A DNA stretch of 64,000 bases from a virus (taxonomy: Duplodnaviria; Caudoviricetes): IMG/VR virus record IMGVR_UViG_3300044530_001128, positions 1,186-65,185 of that record. One strand, given 5' to 3'. The position numbers and the translations under genes are program-made. The notes below the pieces were generated by a model, which searched no databases, was not told the origin of the DNA, and worked only from the letters and a program-made list of their open reading frames with translations. The first letter of the stretch is position 1. Each line of letters opens with the position of its first letter. Shown here one piece after another: positions 19,398-61,966 of the stretch.

Positions 19398-20582
19398 ATG
19401 GCCCTTCATCCCCGAGAATTACGAGCCCTAGAGAAACAACGCCGCTTCATCGATATGTATTCGGCGGGGACCACCAGTTTTCGTCAAAGGCTCCAAGCAA
19501 TAGCGGACGGACCCGCCAGAGTACCGGAGCAACCCAACGCAGCGATAGTGGAAGAGGCAGCGGCTAGCAGCGCTGCCGCAGCGTTTCTGCGTCGAGATAG
19601 GGAGCCGCGCAGCATAGCCGCTGCGGTAAGCAACGTGGTGACTCCTACGCCCGCACCATCCACTACTTTCCAAGGCATCATCGATAGCCTACGAGAGGCA
19701 GCGCCGCGTGCCATGGCTTGGGCGGACTCCCTGCGCGCACTCCGTAGAAGTCAAACAGTAAATCTACAAAGGCCGATGGTCCGCCGTGATGGAGGCAACG
19801 ACTTCGTCTTCACGCGCCATGGGCTCAGACGTGGAGACATGTCCATGGGGTTCGAAGTCGTGAACGTGGTACATGACAGTGGAGAAATGCGTCTTGTTGA
19901 TCTGCAACAGGCTGGCGTGTATGACCACGGAGACGCCCTAGCAGAAGCCCGGGTGCGCTTAAACCGTCAGATGGCGGATGCCGAGGAAGAAATCTTTAGA
20001 GCGTCCACCACCCCTTCGGGGGCACGTCGGCAGGCAGAGTTACACGCCGCAGTCATGCGAGATACGATGACCGAGGGCATCGTGGAGGAGCGCACCATCG
20101 CGCGTCTATATACAACGTCATTCATTGCCGATATAGCCGATTTGCGCGAAGTGTCGTACGACACGCTAACGCGGGCTAAGCATGAACTGCCGGGGATCAA
20201 AAGCTTGAGCCCGCTGATAAGGAATGTCGAGGCATGTTACCTAGCGGAAGACCATTCCGTGGCGTTCGGCGTCGGTATAAACCATCCGGTCACTGACAGT
20301 TGGCGAGAGGATATTCGCCAGTACAAGGCGGCTCTGCTCTCGGTGTGCATCTACTTCGCTAAGCGCGGGGTGCCGTGCAAGGTCACCGACCCCGCCACCG
20401 GATCGAGCAAGGTATCTTTGCAATCGTTTGCAAACGATCTGCAGGGACTCACGCCTGTGCAGCCGCGTGTTATCGCGGGGGCCAAGCAAAAGACGACCAC
20501 TCCGCGCTTGTCATCCACTAGCCGTCGTCGTACACTTCTCTTGCTTAAATCTAACCGGAGCAACCGTAATGGCACTGATTAA
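19398..20582 (+). CDS. Hypothetical protein
   Basis: Long ORF with ATG just after a palindrome; overlaps the start of the AAA gene. Confidence 0.65.
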   Translation: MALHPRELRALEKQRRFIDMYSAGTTSFRQRLQAIADGPARVPEQPNAAIVEEAAASSAAAAFLRRDREPRSIAAAVSNVVTPTPAPSTTFQGIIDSLREAAPRAMAWADSLRALRRSQTVNLQRPMVRRDGGNDFVFTRHGLRRGDMSMGFEVVNVVHDSGEMRLVDLQQAGVYDHGDALAEARVRLNRQMADAEEEIFRASTTPSGARRQAELHAAVMRDTMTEGIVEERTIARLYTTSFIADIADLREVSYDTLTRAKHELPGIKSLSPLIRNVEACYLAEDHSVAFGVGINHPVTDSWREDIRQYKAALLSVCIYFAKRGVPCKVTDPATGSSKVSLQSFANDLQGLTPVQPRVIAGAKQKTTTPRLSSTSRRRTLLLLKSNRSNRNGTD

Positions 20583-22452
20583 ACCACCCAATGCTATGGT
20601 CAAGGGCGGACTACCCGCCCTGACCAAACCCACGACGACGCCCCCGGAAGGGGGCATTGCCGTTTCTTCGGACATGAGCGCGTCCAATACGGACAGGTTC
20701 AAGCTCGACTTCCTGACGGCGATTTCGGCCAGCGTCGGCGTCTATGCCATCCGCACCCGGGAGCCGTTGCGAGCGGCGGCGGTAATGCAGGAGATCATCA
20801 CCGAGTATGCGGAATTCGATCTGGAATTCCGCATGTGGGACCCGATCAAGGGCATCGGCGTATATCCCTCGCCGTTCACCTTCGATGACAAGGGCGTCAT
20901 CACCGGCCGGGACGGACAGGTGGAACTCGACGTGTACAAGCCGACTTCGCACGTCGATAACACGGTCGATCCGATCAAGGCGCTCAACTACGCCGAGGCG
21001 GACCAGAAGCAAGCCCTGTACGTCTTCCAAGGCTGGGTCGGCGGGGGCACCAACAAGTTCCTCTCGGACAAGGTGCAGCACTACATCCGGTTGTTCAACA
21101 TCAAGGCGTTGGACAAGCCCTTCCGCTTCGTGTTCGTTCTGCCCGAGGGCGCTTCCCTCCCGGCGGAAATCGAGACGGAAATCCGCGTGATCGACTTCCT
21201 TGTGCCTTCGCACGGGGAACTCGTGAAGCTGTTCCCCGAAGCTATGGCGGCGGCACCCGAAGGAAGCTGGGTGCCCAACTATAGCCCCGGGGATATCAAT
21301 CGCATCGTGTCCGCGTCCAAGGGCATGTCCGAAATGGAATTCCTCAACGGGGCGGCGGTCGCCATGATCGCCCTCACGTCCAACTTCGAACATGACGATC
21401 TGCGGCCCCTCAAGGACCCTGCGGATATCGACGTGGACGACTTCGTCAAGATCATGTCGGACCAGAAAACCGAAATGATCAAGCGGACGGACGTGCTGGA
21501 AATCCTGCCCACCGGCCACATGGCCGATGTCGGCGGCTTCGATCTTCTCAAGAAATGGATCGCTCGCAGGCGGGCTCATTTCGGGGATGCGGCCCGCGCC
21601 TATGGTATCCGCATGCCCAAGGGCATCATCGCGGTCGGACCTCCCGGCACCGGCAAGTCCGAGCTTGCCAAGGCGGTCGCCAGCGAGCTTGGCGTCCCTC
21701 TGGTGCTGATGAACATCGCTCGCATCTTCGGCAAGTACGTCGGCGAGAGCGAGGGCAAAATGGGTGCTGCCCTCAAGATGATCGAAGCCCAAGCCCCGTG
21801 CGTCCTTATGATCGATGAAATCGACAAGGCGTTCGGCGGCATCGGTGGTCCCGGCGGGGACGGAGGCACCACGCAGCGCACCTTCGGCCAGTTTCTCACA
21901 TGGCTGCAGGAGCGTTATCGCAAGCCCGGGGCATCCCCCGTGTTCGTGATCGCTACCGCCAACAACGTCGAGGGCCTGCCCCCTGAATTGCTGCGCCCGG
22001 GGCGCTTCGACGGCATCTTTGCCTGCCTGTTCCCCAGCGGCAAGGATCGCGTCGAGATCATGCGGATCAAGTTGCGTGCGGCGGGCCATGCTGCCGCCTT
22101 CTCCGACGATCAACTGGAAAACATAGCGAAGGCGTGCGACAAGTACACCGGAGCCGAGATCGAGCAGGCTTTGGCCGAGGCGTTGACCGACGCCTTCGAC
22201 GCGGGCCTTTCCCACCCCACACAGGAAATGTTCCTGACGCAGATCGCCGCACAGGTACCTTTCTCGCAGTCCTTCCCCGACAAGATCGAGCGCATGTATA
22301 GCTGGGCGAAGAAATTCGCCAAGCCGTCATCGAGCGACGCCGACTTCAAGATCGAGGCACCGGCACCCGCAGGTATGGCGGGGACCATCCCCCAACGCCG
22401 CATGACCCTCGCGAGCAAGAAGCGCGTCGGTACCCGGCTAGACGACAAATAG
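20569..22452 (+). CDS. Ycf46-like AAA+ ATPase
   Basis: VGGFDLLKKW, Walker A GPPGTGKS, Walker B LMIDEIDK, SRH LPPELLRPGRFD; degenerate N-terminal AAA-like domain. Confidence 0.9.
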   Translation: MALIKPPNAMVKGGLPALTKPTTTPPEGGIAVSSDMSASNTDRFKLDFLTAISASVGVYAIRTREPLRAAAVMQEIITEYAEFDLEFRMWDPIKGIGVYPSPFTFDDKGVITGRDGQVELDVYKPTSHVDNTVDPIKALNYAEADQKQALYVFQGWVGGGTNKFLSDKVQHYIRLFNIKALDKPFRFVFVLPEGASLPAEIETEIRVIDFLVPSHGELVKLFPEAMAAAPEGSWVPNYSPGDINRIVSASKGMSEMEFLNGAAVAMIALTSNFEHDDLRPLKDPADIDVDDFVKIMSDQKTEMIKRTDVLEILPTGHMADVGGFDLLKKWIARRRAHFGDAARAYGIRMPKGIIAVGPPGTGKSELAKAVASELGVPLVLMNIARIFGKYVGESEGKMGAALKMIEAQAPCVLMIDEIDKAFGGIGGPGGDGGTTQRTFGQFLTWLQERYRKPGASPVFVIATANNVEGLPPELLRPGRFDGIFACLFPSGKDRVEIMRIKLRAAGHAAAFSDDQLENIAKACDKYTGAEIEQALAEALTDAFDAGLSHPTQEMFLTQIAAQVPFSQSFPDKIERMYSWAKKFAKPSSSDADFKIEAPAPAGMAGTIPQRRMTLASKKRVGTRLDDK

Positions 22453-22464
22453 GAGCCGCCTTCC

Positions 22465-22854
22465 ATGGCACTACTCAAAAAGACCACTCGCCCCGTCGCG
22501 TCCAATGTGCGCGTGACGGGGGCTCCCGGCCCCACGAAGCTGGTACGCAAGGCCACGCCCGAGTGCCCTCCTCCGTCCCCGCCGTTCGGTGGCCCCGACA
22601 AACTGCAACCGGTTGCAAAACTGGACGATGAGCCCAAGGGCAGCAAGCAGATCGCCTTCAAGGCGGGGCCGCACGACCAGCGCGTCGTTGACTTGATCGC
22701 GGCTCAGCATGACGGTGACAAAGCTGCTGCGCTAAGGGCTGCGGTGCGCCATTATGCTTTCGCTATCGGCGGTCACGACGCGACCCTCACCATCAAGTTC
22801 CCCGATGGACACGAGGAGCGTCACAGCATCAAGCGAGGCGGACTTCTATGTTGA
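22465..22854 (+). CDS. Putative ribbon-helix-helix DNA-binding protein
   Basis: KQIAFK (strand), DQRVVDLIAA (helix), KAAALRAAVRHY (helix) after a disordered N-terminus. Confidence 0.5.
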   Translation: MALLKKTTRPVASNVRVTGAPGPTKLVRKATPECPPPSPPFGGPDKLQPVAKLDDEPKGSKQIAFKAGPHDQRVVDLIAAQHDGDKAAALRAAVRHYAFAIGGHDATLTIKFPDGHEERHSIKRGGLLC

Positions 22855-23486
22855 TCCAAGCGGTAACCGGTTCGGAGACATTCAGCGCTAGCGGAAGCAT
22901 GCGCGTCATGTGCTTCTGGCGCAAACGGTTCACAGAGCCCGAGGAGCCCTTGCTCCGGGCTATCAAGGACAGTCGTTCCGGCATCCGGGAGGCGGGTCGT
23001 AGCGAGAACCTCCCGGCCGGGGCGGTCGAGGCTCACGGGCGCTGGACCCTTGGCCGGTACGAAGCCGAGCCCGAAGGCGTGCTGCACGTCTGCGTTATGA
23101 GTTCGCGGGCGCGCTTCGGCATGGCCGAGTACCACTTCTACATGTACATCCGGGAGCAGGGCGGGCTAGTCAACGTCCGCATCCCGTTCACGGGTGACCC
23201 GCAAGCCACGCAGTCGGTCGGCTACGTCGAGGCCCGGGGCGACATGATCCCGCCCGGGTGGTTTCAGGCTACGGGCATGATCGATATTCGCGATCCCGGT
23301 GCGTCCAAGTATTCGGACGGCAACCGAGAAACCCTGCGCATTACTGCGACAGTGGTTGAGAAAGCTGAGCGCCCCTACATGCCTCCGTCCATCGCCAAGC
23401 TTCTTGTCGGGGACGATGGCACCGTTCAACGCGTCATCACCAAGGCGGCTCCGCGCCGTCGTCTTCTCATCCGCAGGCCCACTTGA
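22848..23486 (+). CDS. Hypothetical protein
   Basis: Coupled ORF within the AAA module; basic C-terminal tail PRRRLLIRRPT. Confidence 0.7.
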   Translation: MLIQAVTGSETFSASGSMRVMCFWRKRFTEPEEPLLRAIKDSRSGIREAGRSENLPAGAVEAHGRWTLGRYEAEPEGVLHVCVMSSRARFGMAEYHFYMYIREQGGLVNVRIPFTGDPQATQSVGYVEARGDMIPPGWFQATGMIDIRDPGASKYSDGNRETLRITATVVEKAERPYMPPSIAKLLVGDDGTVQRVITKAAPRRRLLIRRPT

Positions 23487-23538
23487 AACGGCGGTGACCT
23501 GTACGCTATCCTAGCCGTTCACTCTCAGGAGCAATAGC

Positions 23539-24006
23539 ATGAGCCACAATGTCACGGTAAAGGGGGTCGCCATCCGGTCGATCCCGGCACTCACGAAGGC
23601 GGTGAGCAATCTCCGCGCCCGGGGTGTTCCCATCAGCATCGAGAAGCGGGAGCGGTTCAAGACCTATGCTCGCCAGCCGGACAGGTGCGACTACGCCATC
23701 CACATCGATGGCGCGAACCACGAGATCGGCGTGCTGAAATCGGCTGACAAGCCGGGCGAATACGAGTTCGTGTTCGACCCGTACTCGGACAGCCGCACCA
23801 GCAGTATCGCCCACTTCCTCGGCATGAAGGGCGTGATCGACGATCCCAACCACACTGTCTCGCATGCCCAGCGGGCCATCGGGCAGTTGACGCAGGAGCA
23901 TGCGCTCTGCGCCGCCGAAGAGAAGTTTGAAAACGAGGGCTGGTCGTTCGAACGCCAGATCGACGCCAAGACCGGCGTCATCCAGTCCATCGCCACGTTG
24001 AACTAG
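23539..24006 (+). CDS. DUF1257/Ycf35-like protein
   Basis: Starts MSH.V.VK...AL.KA..L; IG...YEFVFD.Y; ends with GW..ER..G.I pattern; lies next to a Ycf46-like AAA. Confidence 0.75.
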   Translation: MSHNVTVKGVAIRSIPALTKAVSNLRARGVPISIEKRERFKTYARQPDRCDYAIHIDGANHEIGVLKSADKPGEYEFVFDPYSDSRTSSIAHFLGMKGVIDDPNHTVSHAQRAIGQLTQEHALCAAEEKFENEGWSFERQIDAKTGVIQSIATLN

Positions 24007-24016
24007 GGAGGCTGCA

Positions 24017-24235
24017 TTGTCGTTCGAAAAGCCCAAGGTTATCGTCTCCGTGGACCCGGTCGGCGGGGTCCATATCGAAACCGTTGGTTTCGCCGGTGAC
24101 TCCTGCGCGGTCGCCACGAAGGACTTGGAGCGCGTGCTTATCTCCAAGGACGGCACGATGACCGAAGAGAAAAAGGACGAATACTACCAGCAGGGGGAGA
24201 GCCTCGGCCAGATGGTCGACAACCTCCGCCTGTAG
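24017..24235 (+). CDS. DUF2997-like protein
   Basis: VDP.G.V.IETVGFAGDSC..AT..LE...K.EYY signature; RBS GGAGG before TTG. Confidence 0.8.
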   Translation: MSFEKPKVIVSVDPVGGVHIETVGFAGDSCAVATKDLERVLISKDGTMTEEKKDEYYQQGESLGQMVDNLRL

Positions 24236-24479
24236 GAACCCCGGTCCGCGTTCGCGCTGTTGGACGTGCTAAAACCGACCAAGGGGCAGCGCCAGCGGAC
24301 CATCCCGGGGGAGGGCGTCATTAACCCTCCCCCGGTTCTTACTTTGCAATCGATTGCAATACGCGAACCGCCCGGCTCAGGGGAACGCTACGAGACGTGC
24401 GCCCTAGCATCTTTCATAGTGTCTGCGGGTAGTCCGCAGTGGGTGCGGGCGGTTCACCTATTTCAATCGGAGGAGCAAC

Positions 24480-24722
24480 ATGCAGCTTTTGTCGCGAGAG
24501 CAAATCACGGGACATGTGGACCGGTTCATCGAAGGCTACCTGAGCAGCGGCAAGAACCGATTGCGGCCTGCCACACGCAACCGCATCCTGTTCGCCGTCC
24601 AATCCATCCAGTGGCGTAGCCAGATCGACTTGGCGTACCGGATCGCGGACCTTGTCAAGGTCGACACGGAATGGATGAGCAACCCCGACCACTGGTACGC
24701 TTTCCGTCCGAGGGTAGCATGA
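24480..24722 (+). CDS. Hypothetical protein
   Basis: RBS GGAGGAG; coupled to the next gene. Confidence 0.65.
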   Translation: MQLLSREQITGHVDRFIEGYLSSGKNRLRPATRNRILFAVQSIQWRSQIDLAYRIADLVKVDTEWMSNPDHWYAFRPRVA

Positions 24723-24891
24723 GCGCGCCTGCCCGATACTTGCTGCAGGACGGCAACAAGTTTATGGACCTTAAGCTCCGGGTGTCCAAGCGCGCCGAGC
24801 GCTCTATCGAGAAAGCGATTACGGACGCGCGTACGTGGGGCAAACGCGTTACCATTACGATCAACGGAACCGAACACGAGGTCGTATTCAA

Positions 24892-25430: not shown

Positions 25431-25440
25431 GGAGCGGATA

Positions 25441-27038: not shown

Positions 27039-27053
27039 TGCGGGGGGACGGCG

Positions 27054-28963: not shown

Positions 28964-28964
28964 C

Positions 28965-31919
28965 GTGGCCCTCAAACTCAAGCTGCGCATGCCTCTGCGG
29001 CCAGCGGTGCCGGTCGTCACGTCGCATCTTCCGTTGCGGCGGTTGCGCATGCCCGCATTGCAAACGGTTGCAAAATCCAAGCTTCCGACCGTCGCCAAAG
29101 GCACTCGCCCGTCTATTATGATCGTCCTCGATCCGATCATTACGGACAATCCCGAGGGCGTCACCGGCCCCGCGACGGGCCTGACATTCTCCAAGCTAAA
29201 GCCCTTCATGGAAGCGGCGGGGCTCAAGGGCGAGGACATCGTCTTCGTGTCGGCCTGCATGCCTGTAGACGAGGCCACCAACAAAAGCGAAAAGAAACTC
29301 GGCGCGGCTATCAAGGCCGACCGGGAGGAATTTGTTAAGGCCGTCTCCTACTGGCGTCCCAAGGTCATCGTCGCCATGGGCAAGTCTGCCGCCAGACAGG
29401 TCATGGACAAGGCCGTCAAGATTACCAAAATCCGGGGCATCGCAGTCACGGATGAAATGTTCAAAATCCCGGTGTTGCCCACGCTAGGCATTCACCATGT
29501 CTCCCGGGTACCGGAACACGCCGACGTACTTAGTGCCGATCTGCGCACCGTCGTGTCACTCATTCGGGACAAGTACACGGTTAAGACAAACGACATTCGC
29601 TCCAAGGCGGACCACAAGTGGTGCACCGATTTGTCACCTTACTTGGGGGCCAACAAGCCCAAGATCATAGGGCTCGACATAGAAGGATCGTCGTTCGGTC
29701 ATGGCTTTCCGCACTGGTACAATCCGCACGCTAAAATCCTGACGGTCCAGATTGCTACGGCTCCGGGCAAATCCGTCATTGTGCCTATCGACTACCCCAA
29801 GTATCCGATTGTCCCGCTTGTCAGGCAGCGCCTTGTGCGCCAGCTACGGCAATTGCTGCAAGACCCCGAAGTGGAATGCGTCGGGCACAATCTCAAGTTC
29901 GACATTATGCAACTGCGTGCAAAACTTGGCATCCGGGTAGCCAACTACAAGCACGACACGATCCTACTTGTGCACGCCCTCAACGAGAACCTTTTGACCA
30001 AGGGCCTCGATGACGTGACGCGCATCTATCTACCGGAATGGGCGGGGTACAAGGACGACCTTATCCGCAAGTACGGCGACGACATCTATGAGCGTATGCA
30101 CGAAGTCGAGCCGGATGACATGCTGGGTTACGGGTGCCCGGATAGCGATGTTGCGCTGCAGCTTGCCCTAATTCTTGACGCCAAGCTCAAGGCCGATCCC
30201 CGGGCGTACAACTGCTATACCCGCGTCACCATGCCCGCCCAGCGGGCGTTCTGCGACGTGGAGGAGCCGGGCCTAGTCATCAATCGCCCTGCTCTGTCTG
30301 CGCTGTACAACACCATCGCGGCGCATCAAGCTACCGAGGAGCGGCGTATCAAGGCGTTGGTACCGCCCCGTATTGCGGAAGGGTGCGAGACTACCGGCGT
30401 AGGCTTCAAGCTCACGAGGCCCAAGCTGTTGCTTGAGTGGCTGTTCACGCATCCTGACGGCTTGAAGCTCAAGCCCATGGCGTGGACTAAGAGCGGGGAA
30501 ATCTCCGTATCCACCAAGACCCATCTGACGTACTACAAGGACGAGTACCCCATTGTCTCGGACCTGATCGACTACGTTAAGAACGAGAAGCTCAAAGACA
30601 CCTTCATCGGCTTGGACGAACATGTCGATGACAAGGGCCGCACGGTCCCCAAGTCCGGGTTCTGGCAGTACATCACCCGTGACGGGCGCATCCACCCTTC
30701 GTATCTGCTGTTCGTAACTGTTACGGGGCGCTCGGCCAGCCGCGATCCCAACGGCCAGAATTTCCCCAAGCGCGCAGCCCCGGGCTCCATCACCGAGAAA
30801 TTTGTCAAGGCGTATCGATCCATCTTCGAAGCCCCTCCGGGCTACTGCCTTATCGAGTGCGATCTATCGCAGATCGAGCTACGTGTAGCGGGGATGCTCG
30901 CCAATGAGCCGACCTTCCTGAACATCTATCGGAGTGGGGGCGATATCCATTGCGCCACTGCCGCCGTCGTCATGGGCATTACCCTTGCCCAATTCATGGC
31001 CCTTAAAAAGGGCACGGCCGCAGAGCAAGCCATCTTCAAGATGCAGCGGTTCCGGGCCAAGGCGGTAAACTTCGGCTTCATCTATGGCATGGGGTGGAAG
31101 AAATTCCGGGCCTACGCCAAGACAGATTACAACATCAACCTCACCGAGGAAGAAGCCAAGGATATCCGCCGCAAGTTCTTCTCGGGCTATAGCAATCTGC
31201 CCGAGTGGCATCAGCAAATTAAGGACTTCGTCAAGAAGCATAAGTTTGTACGAGCCCTTGACGGTCGCGTTCGCCACCTTCCGGCCGTCATGTCTGACGA
31301 CGACTCGGCTAGCAGTATGGCGGAACGGCAGGCTATCAATTCTCCGGTGCAGGGCTTTGCGTCGGACTTGGGGCTAATGGCTATCGCCCGCATGAACGCC
31401 GAAGTACCCTACAGCCTGTTGCGGGTTATCGGGTTTGTACACGATGCTATCGTGTGCATCGCCCCTCTCGACAAAGCCGCCGAGGCTTGTCGGACAGTAA
31501 AGAGGTATATGGAAACCAACCCACTCAAGGAGTGGTTCAACATCACCATGAGCGTGCCCATTGTCGCAGAAGCGTCGGTTGGCTTGAATTTGAATGCCAT
31601 GCACGAGCTTGACGACAAAGTCCTTAACGACCAAGGTAACGAAACGTACTCCGATCTTGAGCAAGCGGCGCAGGGGCTACCCCGTCTGCCCCGGCCCACC
31701 CGCCGTAAACTGTTCATGCCCACTGCCCGTCCTGTCCAGCAAAGGAAGCCTCTATGCCGCCCCGTGTTAAAACCGTCGCCCCTGTCGCCGCCGTCAAAGT
31801 CCTTGAGGCCATTGAAGCCTTTGCAGCGGCCAATGACATCGCCCGCGAAGCCACCAGTGCTTCCAACCGCGCTAAGACTGCGGTCCGGAATGCGCTTAAG
31901 GGCTACGCCGCAGGGATAA
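28965..31919 (+). CDS. polA: Family A DNA polymerase with N-terminal UDG-like domain and 3'-5' exonuclease
   Basis: GLDIE, GHNLKFD, TGRSASRDPNGQNFP, DLSQIELR, RAKAVNFGFIYG, VHDAI; GTG start at 28965. Confidence 0.95.
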   Translation: MALKLKLRMPLRPAVPVVTSHLPLRRLRMPALQTVAKSKLPTVAKGTRPSIMIVLDPIITDNPEGVTGPATGLTFSKLKPFMEAAGLKGEDIVFVSACMPVDEATNKSEKKLGAAIKADREEFVKAVSYWRPKVIVAMGKSAARQVMDKAVKITKIRGIAVTDEMFKIPVLPTLGIHHVSRVPEHADVLSADLRTVVSLIRDKYTVKTNDIRSKADHKWCTDLSPYLGANKPKIIGLDIEGSSFGHGFPHWYNPHAKILTVQIATAPGKSVIVPIDYPKYPIVPLVRQRLVRQLRQLLQDPEVECVGHNLKFDIMQLRAKLGIRVANYKHDTILLVHALNENLLTKGLDDVTRIYLPEWAGYKDDLIRKYGDDIYERMHEVEPDDMLGYGCPDSDVALQLALILDAKLKADPRAYNCYTRVTMPAQRAFCDVEEPGLVINRPALSALYNTIAAHQATEERRIKALVPPRIAEGCETTGVGFKLTRPKLLLEWLFTHPDGLKLKPMAWTKSGEISVSTKTHLTYYKDEYPIVSDLIDYVKNEKLKDTFIGLDEHVDDKGRTVPKSGFWQYITRDGRIHPSYLLFVTVTGRSASRDPNGQNFPKRAAPGSITEKFVKAYRSIFEAPPGYCLIECDLSQIELRVAGMLANEPTFLNIYRSGGDIHCATAAVVMGITLAQFMALKKGTAAEQAIFKMQRFRAKAVNFGFIYGMGWKKFRAYAKTDYNINLTEEEAKDIRRKFFSGYSNLPEWHQQIKDFVKKHKFVRALDGRVRHLPAVMSDDDSASSMAERQAINSPVQGFASDLGLMAIARMNAEVPYSLLRVIGFVHDAIVCIAPLDKAAEACRTVKRYMETNPLKEWFNITMSVPIVAEASVGLNLNAMHELDDKVLNDQGNETYSDLEQAAQGLPRLPRPTRRKLFMPTARPVQQRKPLCRPVLKPSPLSPPSKSLRPLKPLQRPMTSPAKPPVLPTALRLRSGMRLRATPQG

Positions 31920-32341
31920 AGGCGACCGAGCCTCCGCGTATGCTGTATCAGGGGAGCCTGTATATGGTGGACGTTACGGAGAGCGAGGAAATCGATGCAG
32001 CCAAGTGGCTCGAAATGCTGGAGGCTGGGGACATTTCCCGGGAACAGTATCTCGAAGCCATCAGCGTCGGCAAGGAAGCCGCCAAGGCCATTATCGGGGA
32101 GGATCAGGTCAACACGATCTGCCAAACCATCTATGGCAAGAAAGCCGACGTGCGCGTCGTCAAGTACGATGGAGCGGAAAAACCGGATGGTTCGGTACTT
32201 GCTACGGAAAGGAAAACGGGGTTAAATCGTATCTCTTCCCTAGCGGTCGGTTCGGTCCGCCCTTTGCAACCGGTTGCAAATCAGCCGCCCAAGCTCAAGG
32301 TGCCGGTACGCCGACTGATCATGCCGTTGCGCAAACCATAG
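31754..32341 (+). CDS. Hypothetical protein
   Basis: RBS AAAGGAAG; overlaps the polA 3' end by 166 nt. Confidence 0.75.
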   Translation: MPPRVKTVAPVAAVKVLEAIEAFAAANDIAREATSASNRAKTAVRNALKGYAAGIKATEPPRMLYQGSLYMVDVTESEEIDAAKWLEMLEAGDISREQYLEAISVGKEAAKAIIGEDQVNTICQTIYGKKADVRVVKYDGAEKPDGSVLATERKTGLNRISSLAVGSVRPLQPVANQPPKLKVPVRRLIMPLRKP

Positions 32342-32350
32342 GATACCAGC

Positions 32351-34020: not shown

Positions 34021-34950
34021 ATGGCTCTCCTCAAGAAACCCGTCACTGGCACGCTCCTCTCCCGTCCCGCAGGCACCGCGCTCGCCAAGCCCGGGGTAAA
34101 TCCCGGAGGCTTCAAGCCCCTTGCCACGCGTCCCATCGCGCGCCCGTCCAGTGACCCGTTCGGCGGTCCCTCCGTCGATCCGACCCTCGTCCAGCCCGAG
34201 GGTTTTGTGCGCAGCGATCAGATCAACGCCGAGAACGCACGCAACCGCGAAGTCCGCATGGCTACCCCGTACCCGTTCCGCATGAGCGTCGGCGAAAAGG
34301 GCAGCGACATGCAGGACGGCGTGCGCATCGTGATCACCGACACGGCCCGTGCCGCCAAGCAAGGCATGCCGTACGACAAGATCAAGAACTCGCCGTTCTT
34401 CTGCTACATGCACCATTGGGGCTACGAGGAGAAGAAATACCAATCGGAAGTGTGCATCCGGGACGGCTCCGAGGGATGCCCGCTCTGCGCCCGTCTCGGC
34501 AAGGAAGGTAGCTGGGAAATGATGCTGACATGCATCGACTCCCGGCCGTACACTCCGAAGTCGGGGCCGAACGCAGGCAAGACGGTTCCCATTTCCCGCA
34601 AGCTCTATCAGGTCAAGACCGGCGTCCAGCCGCAGTTCCAACGCCTGTGGATGCAGCACCACACCTATCGTGGCATGGTGCTGCGGTGCTTCCGGGATAA
34701 CTCCCGTTCGCCGTCTGCTGGCTCCACGGTCCAGTTCGAACGTATGATGTCGGAGGCGGAATTGACCGCCCTCGCCAACAAGTTCAAGAGCAAGGAATTG
34801 ATCACCCCGACCAATTACGAGGTGGCCTTCCGTCGTCCGACCCATGCGGACCTCGTGAAGCGCTTCGGCGGGACCGGGGCAGGTGCGATGCTCGGCGCGG
34901 CTGACAGCCAGACCGATGCAGGTGTGTCCGGGGACGACATTCCGTTCTAG
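34021..34950 (+). CDS. Single-stranded DNA-binding protein (Zn-binding, gp32-like)
   Basis: H...C.......CPLC motif and acidic C-terminal tail DDIPF. Confidence 0.8.
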   Translation: MALLKKPVTGTLLSRPAGTALAKPGVNPGGFKPLATRPIARPSSDPFGGPSVDPTLVQPEGFVRSDQINAENARNREVRMATPYPFRMSVGEKGSDMQDGVRIVITDTARAAKQGMPYDKIKNSPFFCYMHHWGYEEKKYQSEVCIRDGSEGCPLCARLGKEGSWEMMLTCIDSRPYTPKSGPNAGKTVPISRKLYQVKTGVQPQFQRLWMQHHTYRGMVLRCFRDNSRSPSAGSTVQFERMMSEAELTALANKFKSKELITPTNYEVAFRRPTHADLVKRFGGTGAGAMLGAADSQTDAGVSGDDIPF

Positions 34951-36603: not shown

Positions 36604-37171
36604 GGCTAAGCCACCCCCTCCGCACCTTCGTAAGACTATCGTAACCCCTGTAAGGGAGCCGGTGGTTATTGTCGAAGAGCGTGATCTGGCGGCACAACGC
36701 CGGGCTCGCTACCAGCAAGACGAGGAGCATCGGCAGCGAGTGCTTATCGCTAACCGGCGCAATCGCAGGGCCAAGAACCCCGATGTCTACCAGATGGACG
36801 GAAAGGAAGCGGAAAGACGGCTGGATATCCACGCATCCATCATCAATGTGCGAAAGCCGACCGGGATGCTTGTTGACGCACCGATACTATCTATCCGGGG
36901 GTTGTCAATAGTTCTCGGCCGGGACTACAATACGATCATTAACTGGATTAAGCGGGAGCTTTTACCGGCCCCCGTTTTAACGGTCACGTCCGGCCTCCAT
37001 TCGGGGATCAACGTGTACCATCGTGAGGAAATCGCCGTTGTTATCGGAGAGTTAACACGGCATTTTCGGGGTGTGGCTCGCTACAACCAAACTCACGTAA
37101 CGACGATTGACCGCATCAAGGCGGCAGTCGGTAGTGTAAGGGCTTCACTCAAGTACGAGGATAAAGGATAA
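36596..37171 (+). CDS. MerR/excisionase-like HTH protein
   Basis: LSIRGLSIVLGRDYNTIINWIKRELLPAP helix-turn-helix. Confidence 0.7.
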   Translation: MFKAKPPPPHLRKTIVTPVREPVVIVEERDLAAQRRARYQQDEEHRQRVLIANRRNRRAKNPDVYQMDGKEAERRLDIHASIINVRKPTGMLVDAPILSIRGLSIVLGRDYNTIINWIKRELLPAPVLTVTSGLHSGINVYHREEIAVVIGELTRHFRGVARYNQTHVTTIDRIKAAVGSVRASLKYEDKG

Positions 37172-38070
37172 TGGCTATGGCACTCAAAAAAGTCGGCGCT
37201 GCCGCTGCTACCCCCGCCACTGCGAAGGTCGCGGCGGTCGTCGCCAAGACCGCTCCGAAGACGGTCGCCAAGGTCGAGGAGCCCGCCGTGGAAGACACGA
37301 CGGAAGTCCGCGAGTCCAAGGTCGTCGTCACACGTACCGCCATCGCGGGCGGCGTCGAGGCCGATCCGTCGAACGAGGAACACGTCATCGCGGTGAACAA
37401 ATTCATCACGACGCCGCAGATGACGACGGTGACGGTCGGCTCCACCCGCAATGTCGGGGACAGCAACTTCATCAAGTGTTCGGTCGCCGTCTCGATCCCG
37501 TCGTATCGCGAGGAAAGCGATCAGGCGTTCGAAGTCGCGGGCGAGAAGGCCATGGCCTATCTCGGCGCGATTATGACCGAGGCCAGCGTCGAGACGATCT
37601 TCCAGAACGCCGGTGCCACGGCTGACGACGGCGTCGGCGACGCCTTGGCCGAGGGTGCTGGTGAGGACGCCGGGGCCGAAGGCGCGGTCGAAGAGACGGC
37701 CGAGGCCGACGACGGCGAGATCACGCCCGAGAAGATCAGGGCGATGTCCGAAGAGGAACTGACGGCCCTGTGCGCCGCCAACCAGATCGAAATCTCGATG
37801 GACGGCATCGAGACGGTCGATCAGCTTGCCGAGGCGGTCATCGCCGCCGCGTTCGAAGCCGAGGATGGCGGCGAAGCCCAAGGCGCGGATGACGCCGCTG
37901 CGGCCGACTTCGTGCCGTACACGGACGCCGACCTCACGGCCATGAGCATCGCTCAGTTGAAGGAGGTCGTCGTAAGCTGGGGCCTCGACTCGGCTTCCAT
38001 CTTCAAGGGTCCGCCCCCGGCCCAGAAGAACGCCGCCAAGAAGGCGATCCTCGCCGCGCAGGAGGGATAG
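37171..38070 (+). CDS. Acidic protein with two HEH/SAP-like motifs
   Basis: IRAMSEEELTALCAANQI and LTAMSIAQLKEVVVSWGL; K/A-rich N-terminus; strong codon bias. Confidence 0.6.
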   Translation: MAMALKKVGAAAATPATAKVAAVVAKTAPKTVAKVEEPAVEDTTEVRESKVVVTRTAIAGGVEADPSNEEHVIAVNKFITTPQMTTVTVGSTRNVGDSNFIKCSVAVSIPSYREESDQAFEVAGEKAMAYLGAIMTEASVETIFQNAGATADDGVGDALAEGAGEDAGAEGAVEETAEADDGEITPEKIRAMSEEELTALCAANQIEISMDGIETVDQLAEAVIAAAFEAEDGGEAQGADDAAAADFVPYTDADLTAMSIAQLKEVVVSWGLDSASIFKGPPPAQKNAAKKAILAAQEG

Positions 38071-38154: not shown

Positions 38155-39459
38155 ATGGCGCTCAAACTTATCGTCCCGGAAGGCGTAACCCTCGCCCCGG
38201 CTGCAGGCACCGTTACTTTGCAACCGATTGCAAAAACGGGCCTAGTGCTACCTCCCAAGTATTCGGCCGCTACGGCTCCCCCGCCTGTCACCACCAAGTC
38301 GGGGTTGAAGCGCAGGCCCATGTCGTCCGTAACCCTTACGGAGCATGCAATCAGTGGCGAGCTAGGCGCGGTCATCGCGCAGGTTAAGGCCAATTCCCCC
38401 GGAGTTATGCGCCTCGCCAGCGCCCCGGCCTTCAACGTAGGGCGACTGCGTTCCGGTATCCTCGCCGTCGATATGGCATTGGCCGGGGGCTTCCTTATCA
38501 GCCGTGGGCACATGCTGTACGGACACAAGTCCGCTGGTAAATCCACCTTGTCGCTGATCTACGCCAAGTGCATGCAGCGCATGTTCCCGGACATGACGGT
38601 CGTGTACCTAGACGTGGAAGGTACCTTCGATCCGGCATGGGCTATCAAGCTCGGCGTGGACATCACCCGCCTGCTAGTTGTCGAGCCCGAGAGCGGGGAA
38701 CACGCGGTCGATCTTGCCGACGCCGTGATCCGCGCCGCCGAGACTTCCATGCTTATCGTGGATAGCATCGCCATGCTTACCCCGATGAAGGAAATCACCG
38801 ATAGCGCGGAACAGTCGCTACCCGGCATCCATGCCCGTCTCATGGGCAACATGCTGCGGCGGGCTACCAATGCCCTACTGCAGGAGCGTCACCGTGGGCA
38901 TACGCCTACGATCATGTACCTCAACCAGTTCCGTATGAGCATCGGCGTCACCTTCGGTGACCCTCGCGTCATCCCGGGCGGGCAGGCCCTTGGCTTTGCC
39001 GTCACGCAGCAGATGGAGCTAAGCAACAAGGAACAGTACGCCAACAAGAAGGAACGCTTCGAACAAAAGACCAAGAAGGGGCTCGGGGCGCAGGAAAAGG
39101 TCGAAGCCCTATCCGCCGACGACGCCCCCAAGCTGCAGTCGGTCATCGCCAACGAACACACCTTCAAGGTCACGAAGGACAAGACGGGCGGACGTATCAA
39201 GGAAGGTATGTTCCGCATCATCCGGGACGAAAGCACCGGCAAGCCGGTCGGCTTCGTGGATCAGGCGAACACCATCATTCAGGTCGGCCTGATGACGGGG
39301 CAGTTCACCGGGTCCAAACAGTCCTTCGACATCCCTGACTTCGGCAACTTCCGGGGAGCGCCCGCTCTCACCGAGAAGTTCATCAGCGATCCCGAGGTAC
39401 AGGATATCATCGTGGATCGTCTCGTCGGGTTCTATCGTGAGAAGTGGAACGTGACATGA
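38155..39459 (+). CDS. recA: RecA/UvsX-like recombinase
   Basis: SGILAVDMALAGG, YGHKSAGKST, YLDVEG, IVDSIA, LNQFR and PGGQAL motifs. Confidence 0.93.
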   Translation: MALKLIVPEGVTLAPAAGTVTLQPIAKTGLVLPPKYSAATAPPPVTTKSGLKRRPMSSVTLTEHAISGELGAVIAQVKANSPGVMRLASAPAFNVGRLRSGILAVDMALAGGFLISRGHMLYGHKSAGKSTLSLIYAKCMQRMFPDMTVVYLDVEGTFDPAWAIKLGVDITRLLVVEPESGEHAVDLADAVIRAAETSMLIVDSIAMLTPMKEITDSAEQSLPGIHARLMGNMLRRATNALLQERHRGHTPTIMYLNQFRMSIGVTFGDPRVIPGGQALGFAVTQQMELSNKEQYANKKERFEQKTKKGLGAQEKVEALSADDAPKLQSVIANEHTFKVTKDKTGGRIKEGMFRIIRDESTGKPVGFVDQANTIIQVGLMTGQFTGSKQSFDIPDFGNFRGAPALTEKFISDPEVQDIIVDRLVGFYREKWNVT

Positions 39460-39854: not shown

Positions 39855-40911
39855 TGTTCCTGCCCCGCCTAGCGAAGACCGGGGCCTGCCTGCGAAGTTC
39901 ACCGACGAAATCCTCAATAGACAGGGGTTTCGTCGGCAGAGGCTACTGACGGGCATCAACAAGGATTTCAAGATACACGTCTCCGACCTTATCAAGGTCG
40001 AGAGGTCGCGCATGTTCTGTTCGCGGGAACATGCTATCTCCTACCTACTGCAGTCCCCGGAGTACGTCGGGTATCTCACCCCCGGGCTAGAAATGCTGTT
40101 CGCTGCGGGGCACGCCATCAACGATCTGGTGGTTGCCAAGGTCATGGGCGATGCGCAGTACGGCAAGTACATTTGGGGGACGTGGGCCTGCGTATGCGAC
40201 AAGTACGACGGCAAGGGCTTACGGGTTAACGGCTACAAGCCGGGACCGGACGGACCTCGCTGTAAGCGGTGCGGCCTGCCCGCCGTTGTGCACTACGAGC
40301 TTGACCTTGTCATACCGGAATACAGGATCGTCGGCCACGCCGATTTGCTGATGAACTACAACAACGTGATCCGCATTCACGAGGTTAAGTCCATCGACAG
40401 GGCCAGCGTCGATTTCGATACCATGAAGGCCCCGCTCGGGGACCACACGCTGCAGGCATCGTTCTACTACTGGATACTCGTCAAGATGGGGCTCACCCCT
40501 CACAACGTAATCCGGTACGTGTACGCGGATCGTGGCACCGGCAAACTGTTCCGGGGAAATCCCTACAAGACTTTCCATGTGCGGGTATCGCCTGCCGAGC
40601 GCATTACCCCGTTCATTGACAAAGCCAAAACCCTCTTGCATAGTATCGAGACGGGACAGTTAGCGAATAGATTGCCTCAGTGCACCGATGCAAAGTGCGG
40701 CCGGGCTAGTAACTGCCGAGTAGCTTCCACCTGTTTTTCGTTGAAGGGCAATGCGCTTACCCCTAAACCCCTCGTACTTCATAGGGATCGACCCGTCACT
40801 GACGGGGACGGGAGTGGTAGTTCTGTCCAGCGACTTATCCGTCCTGTTCCAAGAATGCTACGAAAGCCCCTCACACCTGTCCGACCTCAAACGGGTAAAG
40901 TGGCTGGCTAA
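39835..40911 (+). CDS. Cas4-like PD-(D/E)xK exonuclease
   Basis: N-terminal C, GHAI, GHADL, HEVKS, QASFY and C-terminal Cys cluster; extra CxC...CxxC insert. Confidence 0.8.
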   Translation: MPLISPSVPAPPSEDRGLPAKFTDEILNRQGFRRQRLLTGINKDFKIHVSDLIKVERSRMFCSREHAISYLLQSPEYVGYLTPGLEMLFAAGHAINDLVVAKVMGDAQYGKYIWGTWACVCDKYDGKGLRVNGYKPGPDGPRCKRCGLPAVVHYELDLVIPEYRIVGHADLLMNYNNVIRIHEVKSIDRASVDFDTMKAPLGDHTLQASFYYWILVKMGLTPHNVIRYVYADRGTGKLFRGNPYKTFHVRVSPAERITPFIDKAKTLLHSIETGQLANRLPQCTDAKCGRASNCRVASTCFSLKGNALTPKPLVLHRDRPVTDGDGSGSSVQRLIRPVPRMLRKPLTPVRPQTGKVAG

Positions 40912-41461: not shown

Positions 41462-42862
41462 ATGGCTGCTCTCAAGAAAACGGCTCCCGCCGCCAAGCCC
41501 GCCGCTGCCGTCAAGGCTCCGGCCAAGCCGATCACGAAGATCGGTGGCACCGCCAAGACGACCGCTTCCAAGCCCGTCAAGGAAAAGCCCGCCCCGGCCG
41601 CTCTGCCGCCGCTGGTCGTCGGCAACATCGCGACGTTCAAGGGCTACACGACCGAACGCGCCCCGGGCGACATCGTCTTCGCCAAGGACGAAGCGACCGG
41701 CAAGATGCCCCGCATCGCCATCTGTGAGATCAACGAGGGCGCCGAAGGCGTCGGCAACGTCTACACGGTCACCGCCGTCGAAGACTACCACCAGTTCGTC
41801 AAGGAGCGCGCCGAAGGCGTCGAGGACGATGCGCTCTCGATGAAGGCCGACATGCTCACCGAGGGCGAGATCAAGCGCGGCGTCTACGACAAGGACAAGG
41901 GCTCCTACCCGGTCGTCCCCGATGCGCCGGCTCCGATCGAAGTCCTCTCCATCGGCACGATGGACGAAATGCTCGCCAAGTACGAGGGCGACAGCCTCCG
42001 CATGGCGCAGAGCCTCTTCGATGACTCCGAGAAGTCGCTCTTCTACGTCGGCGGCGCGCTCGCCCGGCTCAAGCTGCTCAAGGAATACACCGGGTTCGCG
42101 GACCCGTCGGTTCCGGGCGGCGAGACGCCGTACACGTCGGACGGCAAGGGCTGGGAGAAGTTCGTCACCGACAACTTCCCCCCGAACTTCGGCCTCCGCA
42201 AGGCCGAGGGCTACGTCTCGCTCTACACCAAGATCAGCGCGCTCCCCGAGCCGAACAAAATCGTGGACCGTCTGAACGAGATCGGCTATGCCAAGGCTCA
42301 GCTCATCGCCGGGCACATCACCGCCGAGAACGTCGAGGAGATCGTCAACGACGCCGCCTCGCAGACCGTGGTCGAACTCAAGAACACGGTCGCCACCAAG
42401 TACGTCACCGAGTCCGGCACGAATGCGCAGGGCAAGGCGGCGACGCGCCAGACCATCAAGGTCCTCAAAATGGAATTCAAGTTCCACGAGGACACGGCGG
42501 TCGGCCTCAACTTCCTCTTCGAGGAAGCCAAGAAGTCGCTCGGCCTCGATGCCAACGGCACGTTCGAAACGATCCTCCAGCAGTGGGCCATGGATCACCT
42601 CTCGGGCGACATCGTCAGCAAGGCCGAGTCCCGCCGGGCGCAGAAGCTCGCGGCGCTGGAAAAGAGCGGCGCGAAGCTGCCGAAGGATCACCCCGTCGCC
42701 GTGGCTCGCGCCAAGGCCGATGCGTCGGTCCTGCACACCCCGGCCGTCGCCGCTGCTCCGGCCGCTGGCGCTGTCAAGCCCGCGCTCAAGCCCGCGTCGG
42801 CTGCCAAGGCGGCGGTCGCTGGCCTCGCCAAGGGCGGCGCGAAGCTCAAGGCTGCCGCGTAA
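41462..42862 (+). CDS. Probably abundant DNA-binding protein: DUF3102-like HTH core with histone H1-like K/A/P tails
   Basis: FYVGGALARLK...GWEKFV..NF...GLRKAEGYVSLY...EIGYAKAQLI pattern; PAAKPAAAVKAPAK termini; extreme codon bias; own promoter and terminator. Confidence 0.65.
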   Translation: MAALKKTAPAAKPAAAVKAPAKPITKIGGTAKTTASKPVKEKPAPAALPPLVVGNIATFKGYTTERAPGDIVFAKDEATGKMPRIAICEINEGAEGVGNVYTVTAVEDYHQFVKERAEGVEDDALSMKADMLTEGEIKRGVYDKDKGSYPVVPDAPAPIEVLSIGTMDEMLAKYEGDSLRMAQSLFDDSEKSLFYVGGALARLKLLKEYTGFADPSVPGGETPYTSDGKGWEKFVTDNFPPNFGLRKAEGYVSLYTKISALPEPNKIVDRLNEIGYAKAQLIAGHITAENVEEIVNDAASQTVVELKNTVATKYVTESGTNAQGKAATRQTIKVLKMEFKFHEDTAVGLNFLFEEAKKSLGLDANGTFETILQQWAMDHLSGDIVSKAESRRAQKLAALEKSGAKLPKDHPVAVARAKADASVLHTPAVAAAPAAGAVKPALKPASAAKAAVAGLAKGGAKLKAAA

Positions 42863-53767: not shown

Positions 53768-53776
53768 GGGCCGAGC

Positions 53777-54160: not shown

Positions 54161-54230
54161 TTACTGCCCCCGACTGCGTAGCACAGGCCGCAGTCGGGGT
54201 TTCCCTCAACGCCTGATGCAGGAGGTCGAT

Positions 54231-54464
54231 ATGGCATTGAAGTCAACCGGGGCCAAGCCCGCTGCTACCAAGGCTGGCGCAGCCGGGTTCGAAGCGGAGT
54301 ACACGCTCTCTCGCGAAACCAAGGGCACGTTCGTGTTCGAACGCGATGGCCTCACGAAGGAGACTCGGTTCTCCGGATCGAACAGCATCTATCTCCAGAA
54401 GGCCGACTATCCGGACGGCCCGCCGAAGAACCGGATGCGCGTGATCCACGAATTCATCGACTGA
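54231..54464 (+). CDS. Small protein with K/A-rich N-terminus, possibly DNA-binding
   Basis: RBS AGGAGG; MALKSTGAKPAATKA...RETKGTFVF...SIYLQK. Confidence 0.65.
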   Translation: MALKSTGAKPAATKAGAAGFEAEYTLSRETKGTFVFERDGLTKETRFSGSNSIYLQKADYPDGPPKNRMRVIHEFID

Positions 54465-61489: not shown

Positions 61490-61966
61490 ATGGCTATCAA
61501 GCTCAAGACGGCCCCGGCCGTGTCCACCCCCGCCCGCAAGCTGGTGATCGCGGCGAAGCCCTCGAAGGCCAAGGCTGCGGCCCCCGTGGTGGCTGCGCCC
61601 GTGCCCGAGGTCAAGGCGACCGGCGGCAAGTCGGCCAGCGTGCCGCGCTTCATCCACCCGGTGAAGGACCTCTACGATGGGGCCTCCCCCACCACGAATT
61701 CGGGCAAGTCCCGCACGCCGTGGAAGAACGACCAGTTCGGCACCCAGCCCGACCGCTCGCTGACGCCGCGCACCGAGGCGGGGGCCAAGGCCCTGCGCGA
61801 CGTGTACGGGGCCAATCCGTTCAAGCGCGGCAACGTGGACAGCGGTGTCGCCAACGTCCTGATCCAGAAGGGCTACCTGCAGCCCCTCACCGGCGCGGGC
61901 ACCTCGGAGGAGGACACCTACAAGTTCACTCCCCCGGCACTGGCGATCAAGCTCGCCGGGGCCTAG
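61490..61966 (+). CDS. Probably highly expressed basic protein with K/A/P-rich N-terminus and wHTH-like C-terminus
   Basis: Strong codon bias, own promoter (TTGCCA-16-TACACT) and terminator; D.GVANVLIQKGYL....YKFT. Confidence 0.7.
   Translation: MAIKLKTAPAVSTPARKLVIAAKPSKAKAAAPVVAAPVPEVKATGGKSASVPRFIHPVKDLYDGASPTTNSGKSRTPWKNDQFGTQPDRSLTPRTEAGAKALRDVYGANPFKRGNVDSGVANVLIQKGYLQPLTGAGTSEEDTYKFTPPALAIKLAGA

Follow-up and report, generated by a model that had tools for sequence, protein, structure and literature searches.

Basic-aliphatic end peptides shared by DNA-handling proteins of an uncultivated phage and its relatives

Terminal peptides in described replisomes and in the phage window

Phage replisomes are held together by a few terminal peptides, e.g. 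the acidic domain of gp32, the acidic tails of T7 proteins and the C-terminal tip of SSB, the protein that binds single-stranded DNA. Described here are short basic-aliphatic peptides, termed tags, which recur at the ends of unrelated proteins in an uncultivated phage with a genome of about 100 kb. The stretch of DNA analysed, hereafter the window, comprises 64,000 nucleotides and represents bases 1186-65185 of a 65,185-base IMG/VR virus record (IMGVR_UViG_3300044530_001128), estimated to be 66% complete. An identical copy of its SSB is encoded on a contig of about 99.8 kb. The tags are confirmed as selected peptides on disordered tethers of DNA-handling proteins, recurring across the clade. 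In a full-text literature search, no paper was found to describe basic tags shared in this way among replication proteins of phages.

In phage T4, the LAST motif Lys-Arg-Lys-Ser-Thr (residues 3-7) of the N-terminal B-domain of gp32 docks on the neighbouring DNA-bound gp32 core and gives cooperativity. Similarly, the window phage encodes a zinc-binding SSB with a predicted gp32 fold (34021 protein) that begins with a short basic peptide. Distant SSB relatives from loci L014 and L012 carry KRKST and GRKST adjoining the core, and two Lys are followed by Thr or Ser in window tags (MALLKKTT and MAALKKTA, compare MALKST). Unlike in T4, about 50 disordered leader residues lie between the window peptide and the core, the peptide combines an obligatory aliphatic residue with one or two basic residues, and it is present on at least eight other unrelated proteins. 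T4 gp32 recruits its partners by the acidic C-domain and not by copies of the N-terminal peptide.

Replisome docking tails are also known from the interactome of the Escherichia coli SSB C-terminal tip and from the acidic C-tails of T7 gp4 and gp2.5, which bind gp5. There, as may be the case in the window, one short peptide on a flexible tail links many DNA enzymes, and the window SSB itself ends with a classic acidic tip, DDIPF. The polarity is reversed, however: many clients carry a basic-aliphatic tag in the window, whereas the described systems have one acidic-tip hub that is read by pockets of the clients. Histone H1-like tails rich in Ala, Lys and Pro are known in bacterial DNA-binding proteins. 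The tails of the 41462, 37171 and 61490 proteins have this composition, in contrast to the leaders of the AAA ATPase, PolA, RecA, the SSB and the 22465 protein, which are rich in Pro, Thr, Val and Gly with few Lys. The element common to the window proteins is the five-residue start and not an H1-like tail composition.

Tags, disordered tethers and tail motifs

Nine near-identical N-termini on unrelated proteins had been reported in the initial annotation of this DNA, and all nine are present in the sequence (Table 1). They follow MA(L/I/A)(L/K/I)(K/L), and their carriers are unrelated by Pfam and PHROG. The first six residues of the 22465 protein and of the 34021 SSB are identical. A strict pattern, A[LI][LIK][KL] right after the start, was found in 7 of 97 gene calls and at 9 of 18,740 internal positions; the binomial p of 7e-14 is to be read with the post hoc choice of the pattern, made after seeing the data. 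Leu or Ile occupies position 3 in 8 of the 19 proteins with an MA- start (background 0.128, p 0.0015). A loose version of the N-terminal motif is merely about 4-fold enriched at N-termini (15/97 against 3.9% of internal windows). An ESM Atlas search with the 41462 protein returned nothing above 0.83.

The tags are encoded by various synonymous codons, namely GCA, GCC, GCT and GCG for Ala, CTG, CTA, CTC and TTG for Leu, and AAA and AAG for Lys. This variation at synonymous sites among the nine tags, and likewise among the RR-L motifs described below, argues for selection on the peptide and not on the nucleic acid. In RegA-type translational control, an RNA operator lies over the start codons. 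An RNA operator or any other RNA or DNA element in this position was ruled out for the tagged genes, since synonymous sites vary and the upstream 40 nt are mutually dissimilar.

Long Pro/Lys/Ala-rich extensions, absent from canonical bacterial homologues, had been claimed to follow the tags. The extensions precede the recognised domains, and their composition is dominated by Ala (18%) and Pro (16%), followed by Val (10%), Thr (10%) and Lys (9%). The recognised domains begin at residue 83 in RecA, at residue 58 in the UDG/PolA protein (Pfam UDG first) and at residue 38 in the AAA ATPase (family match). Two proteins were folded with AlphaFold2 (AF2): residues 1-57 of the SSB and residues 1-36 and 592-627 of the AAA ATPase are disordered in the models. 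GC content peaks at the third codon position in all nine leaders, the expected coding signature. The public gene call P0008 (350 aa) starts the window RecA (38155-39459) at Met85, dropping the whole tagged extension. The 17 nearest RecA homologues (378-443 aa) keep an N-extension; the order in the nearest homologues is the tag, then [LV]Q[VE]PA, then KKGGIRRRE.

The second element of the initial annotation, RR-hydrophobic motifs in protein tails, stood for six of eight examples, which fit the single regular expression RR.{0,1}[LM][LIFMRT][LIMFR]; QRLIRP and ARKLVIA are looser. The expression yields 7 matches, which fall on 6 sites; every site is in a protein tail and lies within 19398-32341. 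After shuffling of the proteins, the mean was 1.53 matches, and 7 or more were obtained in 4 of 2000 shuffles. The bacterial beta-clamp-binding consensus is QL[SD]LF or QLxLxL. A beta-clamp-binding motif was ruled out: Gln precedes the motif in only two of the eight examples (QRRMTLA, QRLIRP), and the tails of orthologues (RKLKLP, RKIRIK, RRIKG, RKFRVLP) have no Gln/Phe pattern.

For comparison, 80 loci around RecA homologues from an alignment-based search, the phages RcDurkin, JP1 and L338C, and the IMG/VR genomes G009, G007 and G005 were used. RcKickapoo was left out, since its gene lengths equal those of RcDurkin and it is too near to inform. When the viral collection was searched for related loci with the SSB or RecA as single query, no close relatives were found, and a metagenome scan for them yielded two short fragments only. 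Conservation of the motifs in relatives, a matter raised in the initial annotation, was observed as a conservation of kind: orthologues carry the same kind of ends in other letters. SSB orthologues start with MAIKPP, MAIRRKP, MAIRRPK, MVIKRP, MIRRKI, MPRRLIK and MVQIRR, RecA orthologues with MAIKKR, MAIKRR, MAGIKRR and MPIKKR. Starts of 37171 orthologues are MAIRKAG, MAIKRSG, MARKPKG and MAIAKKT, those of 41462-like proteins MATRKLK and MVSIKKP. Six closer SSB homologues (34-59% identity) begin with MALIIKKP, MKSLIRHP, MSLRLPP, MALPIRRLPP, MPLLRKIV and MALLKKP. The last of these is 34% identical to the window SSB overall, with the first seven residues identical.

The C-termini behave alike. 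Ends of 31754-like proteins are RKLKLPTRK, RKIRIKR, RKLRIGRK and RRKIRV, and eight orthologues have tails of the [KR][KR][IL][KR][IVL] type. Orthologues of the 22848 protein end with ..RRSRVVVRRGRKITI, ..RKRRLRLS and ..NRVKKLRL, orthologues of the AAA ATPase with ..ARVVRKP.., ..ARIIKPGR.., ..RRPKVLPKP.. and ..GVVRKGPR... PolA orthologues likewise retain basic-aliphatic ends. Orthologues of the Cas4-like nuclease have the C-ends ..RKFRVLP, ..KTFRVM and ..RPIRV, while a more distant group carries the N-end MTTRKRIV or MSIRKRIV instead.

Among 73 RecA homologues with E <= 1e-60, 70 start with Met. A tag defined as M-x(1,2)-[LIV] with Lys or Arg at positions 3-9 and no acidic residue at positions 2-7 is present in 58 of these 70. 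Position 3 is aliphatic in 59 of the 70 (Ile 39, Val 12, Leu 8). Leu fills the aliphatic position in 6/8 window tags and in 4/35 tags of relatives (Fisher p 8e-4), while Leu and Ile are used equally in the proteome. The SSB, RecA and AAA proteins of G010, G011 and L338C are without tags.

A restriction of the tag to replication proteins, as assumed in the initial annotation, was not found. In G009, G007 and RcDurkin, terminase orthologues start e.g. with MAVKRKPS and MVSKLVKPSRKIIVRKKPK and have basic C-ends in addition. Portal proteins (identity confirmed by PHROG 12) start with MSKTRIKKRG, MARRLVRKINTP and MARTRTLKIKP, and ParB-like proteins and several small head-module proteins carry the same kind of ends. 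The suggested contrast to virion genes was examined in RcDurkin. With a preset 'basic end' rule and the protein classes of RcDurkin's own annotation, 11/22 DNA-handling proteins were marked against 4/23 virion, lysis and membrane proteins (Fisher p 0.029). None of the seven adaptor and tail proteins was marked, and the major capsid protein of RcDurkin is without a tag. The rule is weak, as it flags 15-31% of the proteins in each genome, including the untagged G010 and G011. For proteins of at least 250 aa, it flags 15/25 in G009, 13/30 in G007, 13/32 in RcDurkin, 9/34 in G005, 6/38 in G010 and 9/27 in G011, and 2/19 in the window, whose Lys-poor tags it misses. The window is unsuited to this comparison because its head and packaging genes lie outside; its 18 structural genes are tail and lysis genes only, and the strict tag is present on 0/18. 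Since tags occur also on terminase, portal and ParB-like proteins and on no tail protein, they mark DNA-handling proteins and not replication alone.

Possible partners of the tags

Such a distribution could be expected of direct polyanion-binding arms. Basic-hydrophobic ends and Ala/Lys/Pro tails would bind DNA or acidic disordered regions, e.g. the 37171 protein or the SSB tail, and no dedicated receptor would be involved. DNA-handling proteins would be concentrated locally, and a DNA-centred condensate may be driven, in line with the earlier idea of a replication compartment. The general marking of DNA-handling proteins including terminase, portal and ParB-like proteins fits, as do the conservation of kind rather than letters over longer distances, the position of the motif at either terminus, its multiple copies per tail in PolA and the H1-like tails of the 41462, 37171 and 61490 proteins. 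However, one or two positive charges per window tag, as in MALIKPP or in MALKLIV with PEG after it, would not by themselves suffice for DNA binding. Charge does not explain the aliphatic position 3 in 59/70 RecA homologues, and the concerted Leu/Lys-only flavour of the window is not expected of independent DNA arms. Direct arms are regarded as somewhat unlikely.

The preferred reading involves a receptor. The N-terminal form M-small-[L/I]-x-[K/R] and the tail form [K/R][K/R]-x-[L/I/V]-hydrophobic, often followed by Pro, would be one docking handle, gathering DNA-handling proteins on the phage nucleoprotein; their place at the free ends of long disordered tethers is what an address or docking handle would need. 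As receptor, the gp32-type SSB of the phage itself, whose N-terminus has the same tag, is the likeliest candidate. An enzyme whose peptide mimics LAST could insert into an SSB filament, cap it or open it locally, and RecA, polymerase, nuclease and helicase would thereby reach SSB-covered DNA. The SSB is gp32-like and shares its tag with the 22465 protein, which makes an SSB peptide-receptor site the most economical reader. One or two Lys and two to four aliphatic residues per window tag would suit a protein pocket better than DNA. We infer both that the tags bind a partner and that this partner is the SSB; docking by LAST-type mimicry, drawn from the analogy to T4, is proposed tentatively. If true, replisome wiring would follow a new principle, in which a large uncultivated clade keeps a basic-aliphatic tag on a dozen DNA-handling proteins that are not related to each other. 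In phages apparently without a sliding clamp, this would account for the way in which polymerase, recombinase and nuclease find DNA. As a peptide of 6-8 residues, the tag would also be a simple experimental handle for pull-downs, localisation and inhibition.

As judged from profile and model, the 34021 protein is a gp32-type SSB. Its zinc set comprises His131, Cys145 and Cys156, invariant in 19 sequences, and the nearly invariant Cys153. A profile alignment places this His/Cys3 stretch on the zinc region of gp32, and the four best PDB profile matches are all gp32, with marginal scores (E 0.07-0.17). The AF2 model has a predicted local distance difference test (pLDDT) score of 76.6. Its six best Foldseek PDB matches are T4 and RB69 gp32 (probability 0.96-0.99, E 5e-3 to 2e-2, template modelling (TM) score 0.30-0.46); the scores are weak, the matches exclusively gp32. 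No Pfam match was obtained, and phmmer against PDB gave nothing. In the family set, the best 150 family representatives, 148 proteins start with Met. A basic N-terminus is present in 75 of these 148, and the literal LAST motif, searched by a strict regular expression, in 2. Where a gp32-like SSB gene lies no more than 10 kb away, RecA is tagged in 9/18 loci; in loci without one, it is tagged in 3/41.

Several results weigh against SSB docking. At ortholog identities of 27-75%, the six tag positions are conserved no better than linkers (0.17-0.53 against 0.25-0.46). Tag letters specific to a genome gained no significant support from permutation, with 432/2000 and 189/1000 shuffles reaching the observed value. 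Only a few tree events underlie the association of SSB tags with RecA tags, and an independent-pairs test on the RecA tree (3-4 pairs) has no power. The gp32 assignment of the 34021 protein rests on weak E-values. None of the window tags has the three basic residues of the literal LAST motif, the closest being those of the 22465 and 41462 proteins. Nor would SSB docking predict the tags that relatives carry on portal, terminase, ParB-like and head-module proteins. The Lys codons of the tags are rich in AAA (8/15), which indicates that selection on the mRNA start region also acts. In a separate comparison by gene presence and absence, no 'reader' gene was found that is present in the tagged G009, G007, RcDurkin and G005 and absent from G010 and G011. 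Genes like 31754, 41462 and 43867 are missing from the untagged genomes, yet tblastn did not find them in the tagged G005 either.

A wider form of SSB docking may be considered for a clade of siphophages of about 90-110 kb. A peptide 'address code' would be derived from the cooperativity peptide of a gp32-type SSB, its copies would plug into one receptor site on SSB-DNA, and tag and receptor would co-evolve by lineage. Carriers would be the recombinase, the polymerase, helicase-side proteins, the nuclease, the Cdc48-like unfoldase, terminase and portal, with a C-terminal variant in addition. The flavours of the code would be Leu/Lys in the window phage and Ile/Arg in other lineages. Replication, recombination and packaging would form a clamp-less factory, wired opposite to the SSB C-tip interactome. 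As a whole, this scheme is speculative and unlikely.

Further ends were observed in the SSB and 37171 families. Among the 150 best SSB family representatives, the C-tip is basic in 78 and acidic-aromatic in 50. The gp32-like SSBs of loci L011, L012, L014, L015 and L016 have a long acidic region with a basic end (..GRRLPIRGRR, ..RRLKANRR) instead of an acidic-aromatic tip. Distant, shorter genes of the 37171 family lie just upstream of RecA in loci L027, L028, L040, L043 and L049. Their products end like an SSB C-tip (..DDDPF, ..EENPF, ..SNSPF, ..NQPY, ..KPSLF), which suggests that they plug into a network reading SSB tips.

AAA+ machines classically engage a protein at a tagged end of a long unstructured region, and ClpX remodels or removes DNA-bound complexes of MuA and lambda O. 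The tag letters presumably resemble ClpX degrons (N-motifs 1-3, C-motif 2) and the ClpX-binding tail of SspB, while we know of no precedent for degrons on portal, terminase and a dozen proteins together. In the window, the tags would thus be entry handles for an unfoldase or chaperone, either the phage AAA ATPase or host ClpX or DnaK, which remodels or removes DNA-bound complexes. The AAA gene (20569-22452) opens the replication module and is present in 11/11 records of nearer relatives, untagged ones included. Its product is most similar to p97/Cdc48, with phmmer giving E 2e-54 against the D2 domain. The AF2 model aligns to the D1-D2 tandem of p97, Cdc48, Rix7 and NVL over 564-626 columns (E 1e-19 to 1e-22, TM by query 0.35-0.53). 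On these grounds, the protein is classed as a two-tier Cdc48/p97-like D1-D2 ATPase. Its N-half is a degenerate AAA+ module without a Pfam AAA match, recognised by a profile match to RFC5 in its AAA+ module (E 6e-6). Neither the N-half profile nor Pfam nor the AF2 model revealed an N domain of the p97 type (double-psi barrel and beta-clam). Residues 1-36 are disordered directly before D1, and the Rix7 and Cdc48 chains to which the model aligns are N-deleted. No function is assigned to a Cdc48-like unfoldase at the head of a replication module in a phage.

Cofactors of p97 dock via linear motifs, the arginine-rich VBM with the consensus EhRRRRLxhh and the VIM, which are read by the N domain of p97 (PMC5389986). 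Resemblance to this system lies in Arg-rich, Leu-containing motifs on unrelated proteins and a Cdc48-like ATPase in the same module. PRRRLLIRRP, RRRTLLLL and RRKLFMP resemble the consensus; PRRRLLIRRP and SRRRTLLLL match RRR-L-hh, while the others have only two Arg. The motifs lack the leading acidic residue and are followed by Pro. Pro right after the motif disfavours the helical VBM mode. Because the phage AAA ATPase has no p97-type N domain, the VBM receptor, the RR-L likeness stands without its receptor, and reading of a VBM by an N domain of the phage AAA was ruled out. The proposal of the initial annotation that the AAA ATPase reads the tags has nothing pointing to it, as the enzyme carries motifs on both of its own ends and is also present in G010, G011 and L338C, whose SSB, RecA and AAA are untagged. 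Degrons at the N- or C-terminus are recognised by ClpX, among them those of the phage proteins lambda O and MuA (PMC12723719), and the tags generally resemble these in being terminal basic-hydrophobic signals at the ends of disordered regions. In contrast to known degrons, they are present on portal, terminase and a dozen proteins at once, and it is not obvious what a phage would gain by marking portal, terminase and a dozen enzymes that it needs for unfolding. The unfoldase reading is considered improbable.

The start regions of the tagged genes are peculiar in themselves. A 16-nt motif, TTGCAA-NCGN-TTGCAA, occurs in 32 copies in the window at up to 2 mismatches, with 0.07 expected. By the gene calls made here, 17 sites are intergenic, mostly 2-121 nt upstream of start codons, and 15 are coding. 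Of the coding sites, 14 are in a single frame reading Leu-Gln-x-(Val/Ile/Phe/Leu)-Ala. Transcribed into RNA, the motif can fold into a tetraloop hairpin of 6-7 bp (-4.4 to -5.3 kcal/mol). Probably it is either an RNA element or a site of the regulator or operator kind. A TTGCAA-N4-TTGCAA site lies within 160 nt of the start in 7/9 tagged genes and in 15/88 others (Fisher p 3.5e-4), and inside the extension in PolA, RecA and 22465. Lys is encoded by AAA in 8/15 tag codons, compared with 11/38 at other 5' ends and 177/908 in gene bodies, and the tagged genes have the highest GC content at the third codon position in the window. The sites near tagged starts and the AAA excess indicate a special regulatory class of genes, so that start-region optimisation may account for part of the N-terminal likeness.

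As a full explanation, convergent optimisation of translation starts would imply no shared protein function. A GCN second codon and A-rich Lys codons would serve strongly expressed genes leading transcription units, and the extensions would be low-complexity sequence grown over regulatory DNA. Yet Leu at position 3 is encoded by CTC, CTG, CTA and TTG, which are not A/T-rich, relatives freely use Arg codons in their tags, and the RcDurkin major capsid protein is untagged. The aliphatic position 3 of the RecA homologues persists across differing GC contents. Neither the TTGCAA sites nor the AAA excess can explain the conservation in relatives or the C-terminal motifs, including the shift of the motif between termini in the nuclease orthologues. 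Optimisation of starts alone is therefore very unlikely.

Coordinates and gene layout

Table 1. Positions of tags, tail motifs and TTGCAA sites in the window.
Feature	Position	Strand	Remark
AAA ATPase, N-tag MALIKPP and disordered leader, residues 1-38	20569..20682	+	AF2 pLDDT <50 for residues 1-36
22465 protein, N-tag MALLKKT and Pro-rich leader	22465..22614	+	orphan; public gene call has the same start
PolA, N-extension with GTG start, tag ALKLKLRMP	28965..29135	+	second motif LRRLRMP 29034-29054; DNA motif site at 29058
Predicted gp32-like SSB, N-tag MALLKKP and disordered leader 1-57	34021..34191	+	acidic tip DDIPF at 34933-34947
Acidic 37171 protein, MAMALKKVG and Ala/Lys/Pro tail	37171..37290	+	
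RecA, N-extension, tag MALKLIV	38155..38400	+	DNA motif site at 38218; conserved KSGLKRRP 38296-38319
41462 protein, N-tag MAALKKT and histone H1-like Ala/Lys/Pro tail	41462..41611	+	second Ala/Lys/Pro tail 42719-42859
77-aa protein, N-tag MALKSTG	54231..54251	+	
61490 protein, N-tag MAIKLKT, Ala/Lys/Pro tail	61490..61654	+	motif ARKLVIA 61532-61552
19398 protein, C-tail motif RRRTLLLLK	20523..20549	+	
AAA ATPase, C-tail motif QRRMTLA	22393..22413	+	in disordered tail 592-627
22848 protein, C-terminal PRRRLLIRRP	23451..23480	+	
PolA, C-tail motif TRRKLFMP	31698..31721	+	just before the stretch overlapped by gene 31754
31754 protein, C-terminal VRRLIMP	32306..32326	+	
Cas4-like nuclease, C-tail QRLIRP	40828..40845	+	
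TTGCAA-NCGN-TTGCAA, example sites	2229, 3709, 9402, 29058, 32264, 38218, 39816, 41342		
TTGCAA sites within discussed tails	29058 (PolA), 38218 (RecA), 22603 (22465), 32264 (31754), 20418 (19398 protein)		

The window has a GC content of 55-63%, and nearly every gene lies on the + strand. According to Pfam and PHROGs, the part up to about 18.6 kb holds a lambda-like tail module (end of the tape measure, M/L/K/I/J-like genes), an endolysin and an Rz-like spanin. Genes for replication and recombination come next, forming a module, and numerous small genes follow. The module comprises the AAA ATPase, a RepO-like protein, a DnaB-like helicase, the UDG-exonuclease-PolA protein (28965-31919), a primase, the 34021 protein, a further helicase, the RecA/UvsX-like protein (38155), two junction resolvases, the Cas4-like nuclease and a Prim-Pol. 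The closest named phages are distant, with 30-45% protein identity: Rhodobacter phages RcDurkin and RcTiptonus, Agrobacterium phage JP1, Rhizobium phages L338C and RHph_I4, and PaMx31-like Pseudomonas phages. By tblastn bit scores, the genome is a mosaic. The tail genes (1-14000) match only G010 and G011, i.e. untagged relatives, while the replication module (19000-46000) is closer to G009, G007 and RcDurkin.

Gene 31754 begins within PolA in a different frame, so that it shares 166 nt (31754-31919) with the final 55 PolA codons. The 31754 reading frame is conserved in relatives from its first residues. Similar overlaps are found in G009 (44 nt) and, if gp71 starts at the upstream MPQKHKLPP, in RcDurkin. 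A 458-aa protein without an assigned function is encoded at 43867-45243. It is strongly conserved in G009, G007 and RcDurkin (gp84; tblastn about 280-300 bits), with no match in G005, G010 and G011.

The RecA homologue P0010 (54% identity) comes from a 296-kb contig in an NCBI record of an unclassified Bradyrhizobium. This origin hints that phages of the group infect, or are prophages in, Bradyrhizobium-like alphaproteobacteria. In L338C (locus L005, 9798-12625), PolA is annotated as two overlapping pieces, and the C-terminal end of RecA is out of frame relative to homologues. These anomalies may be frameshifts or sequencing errors in the record.

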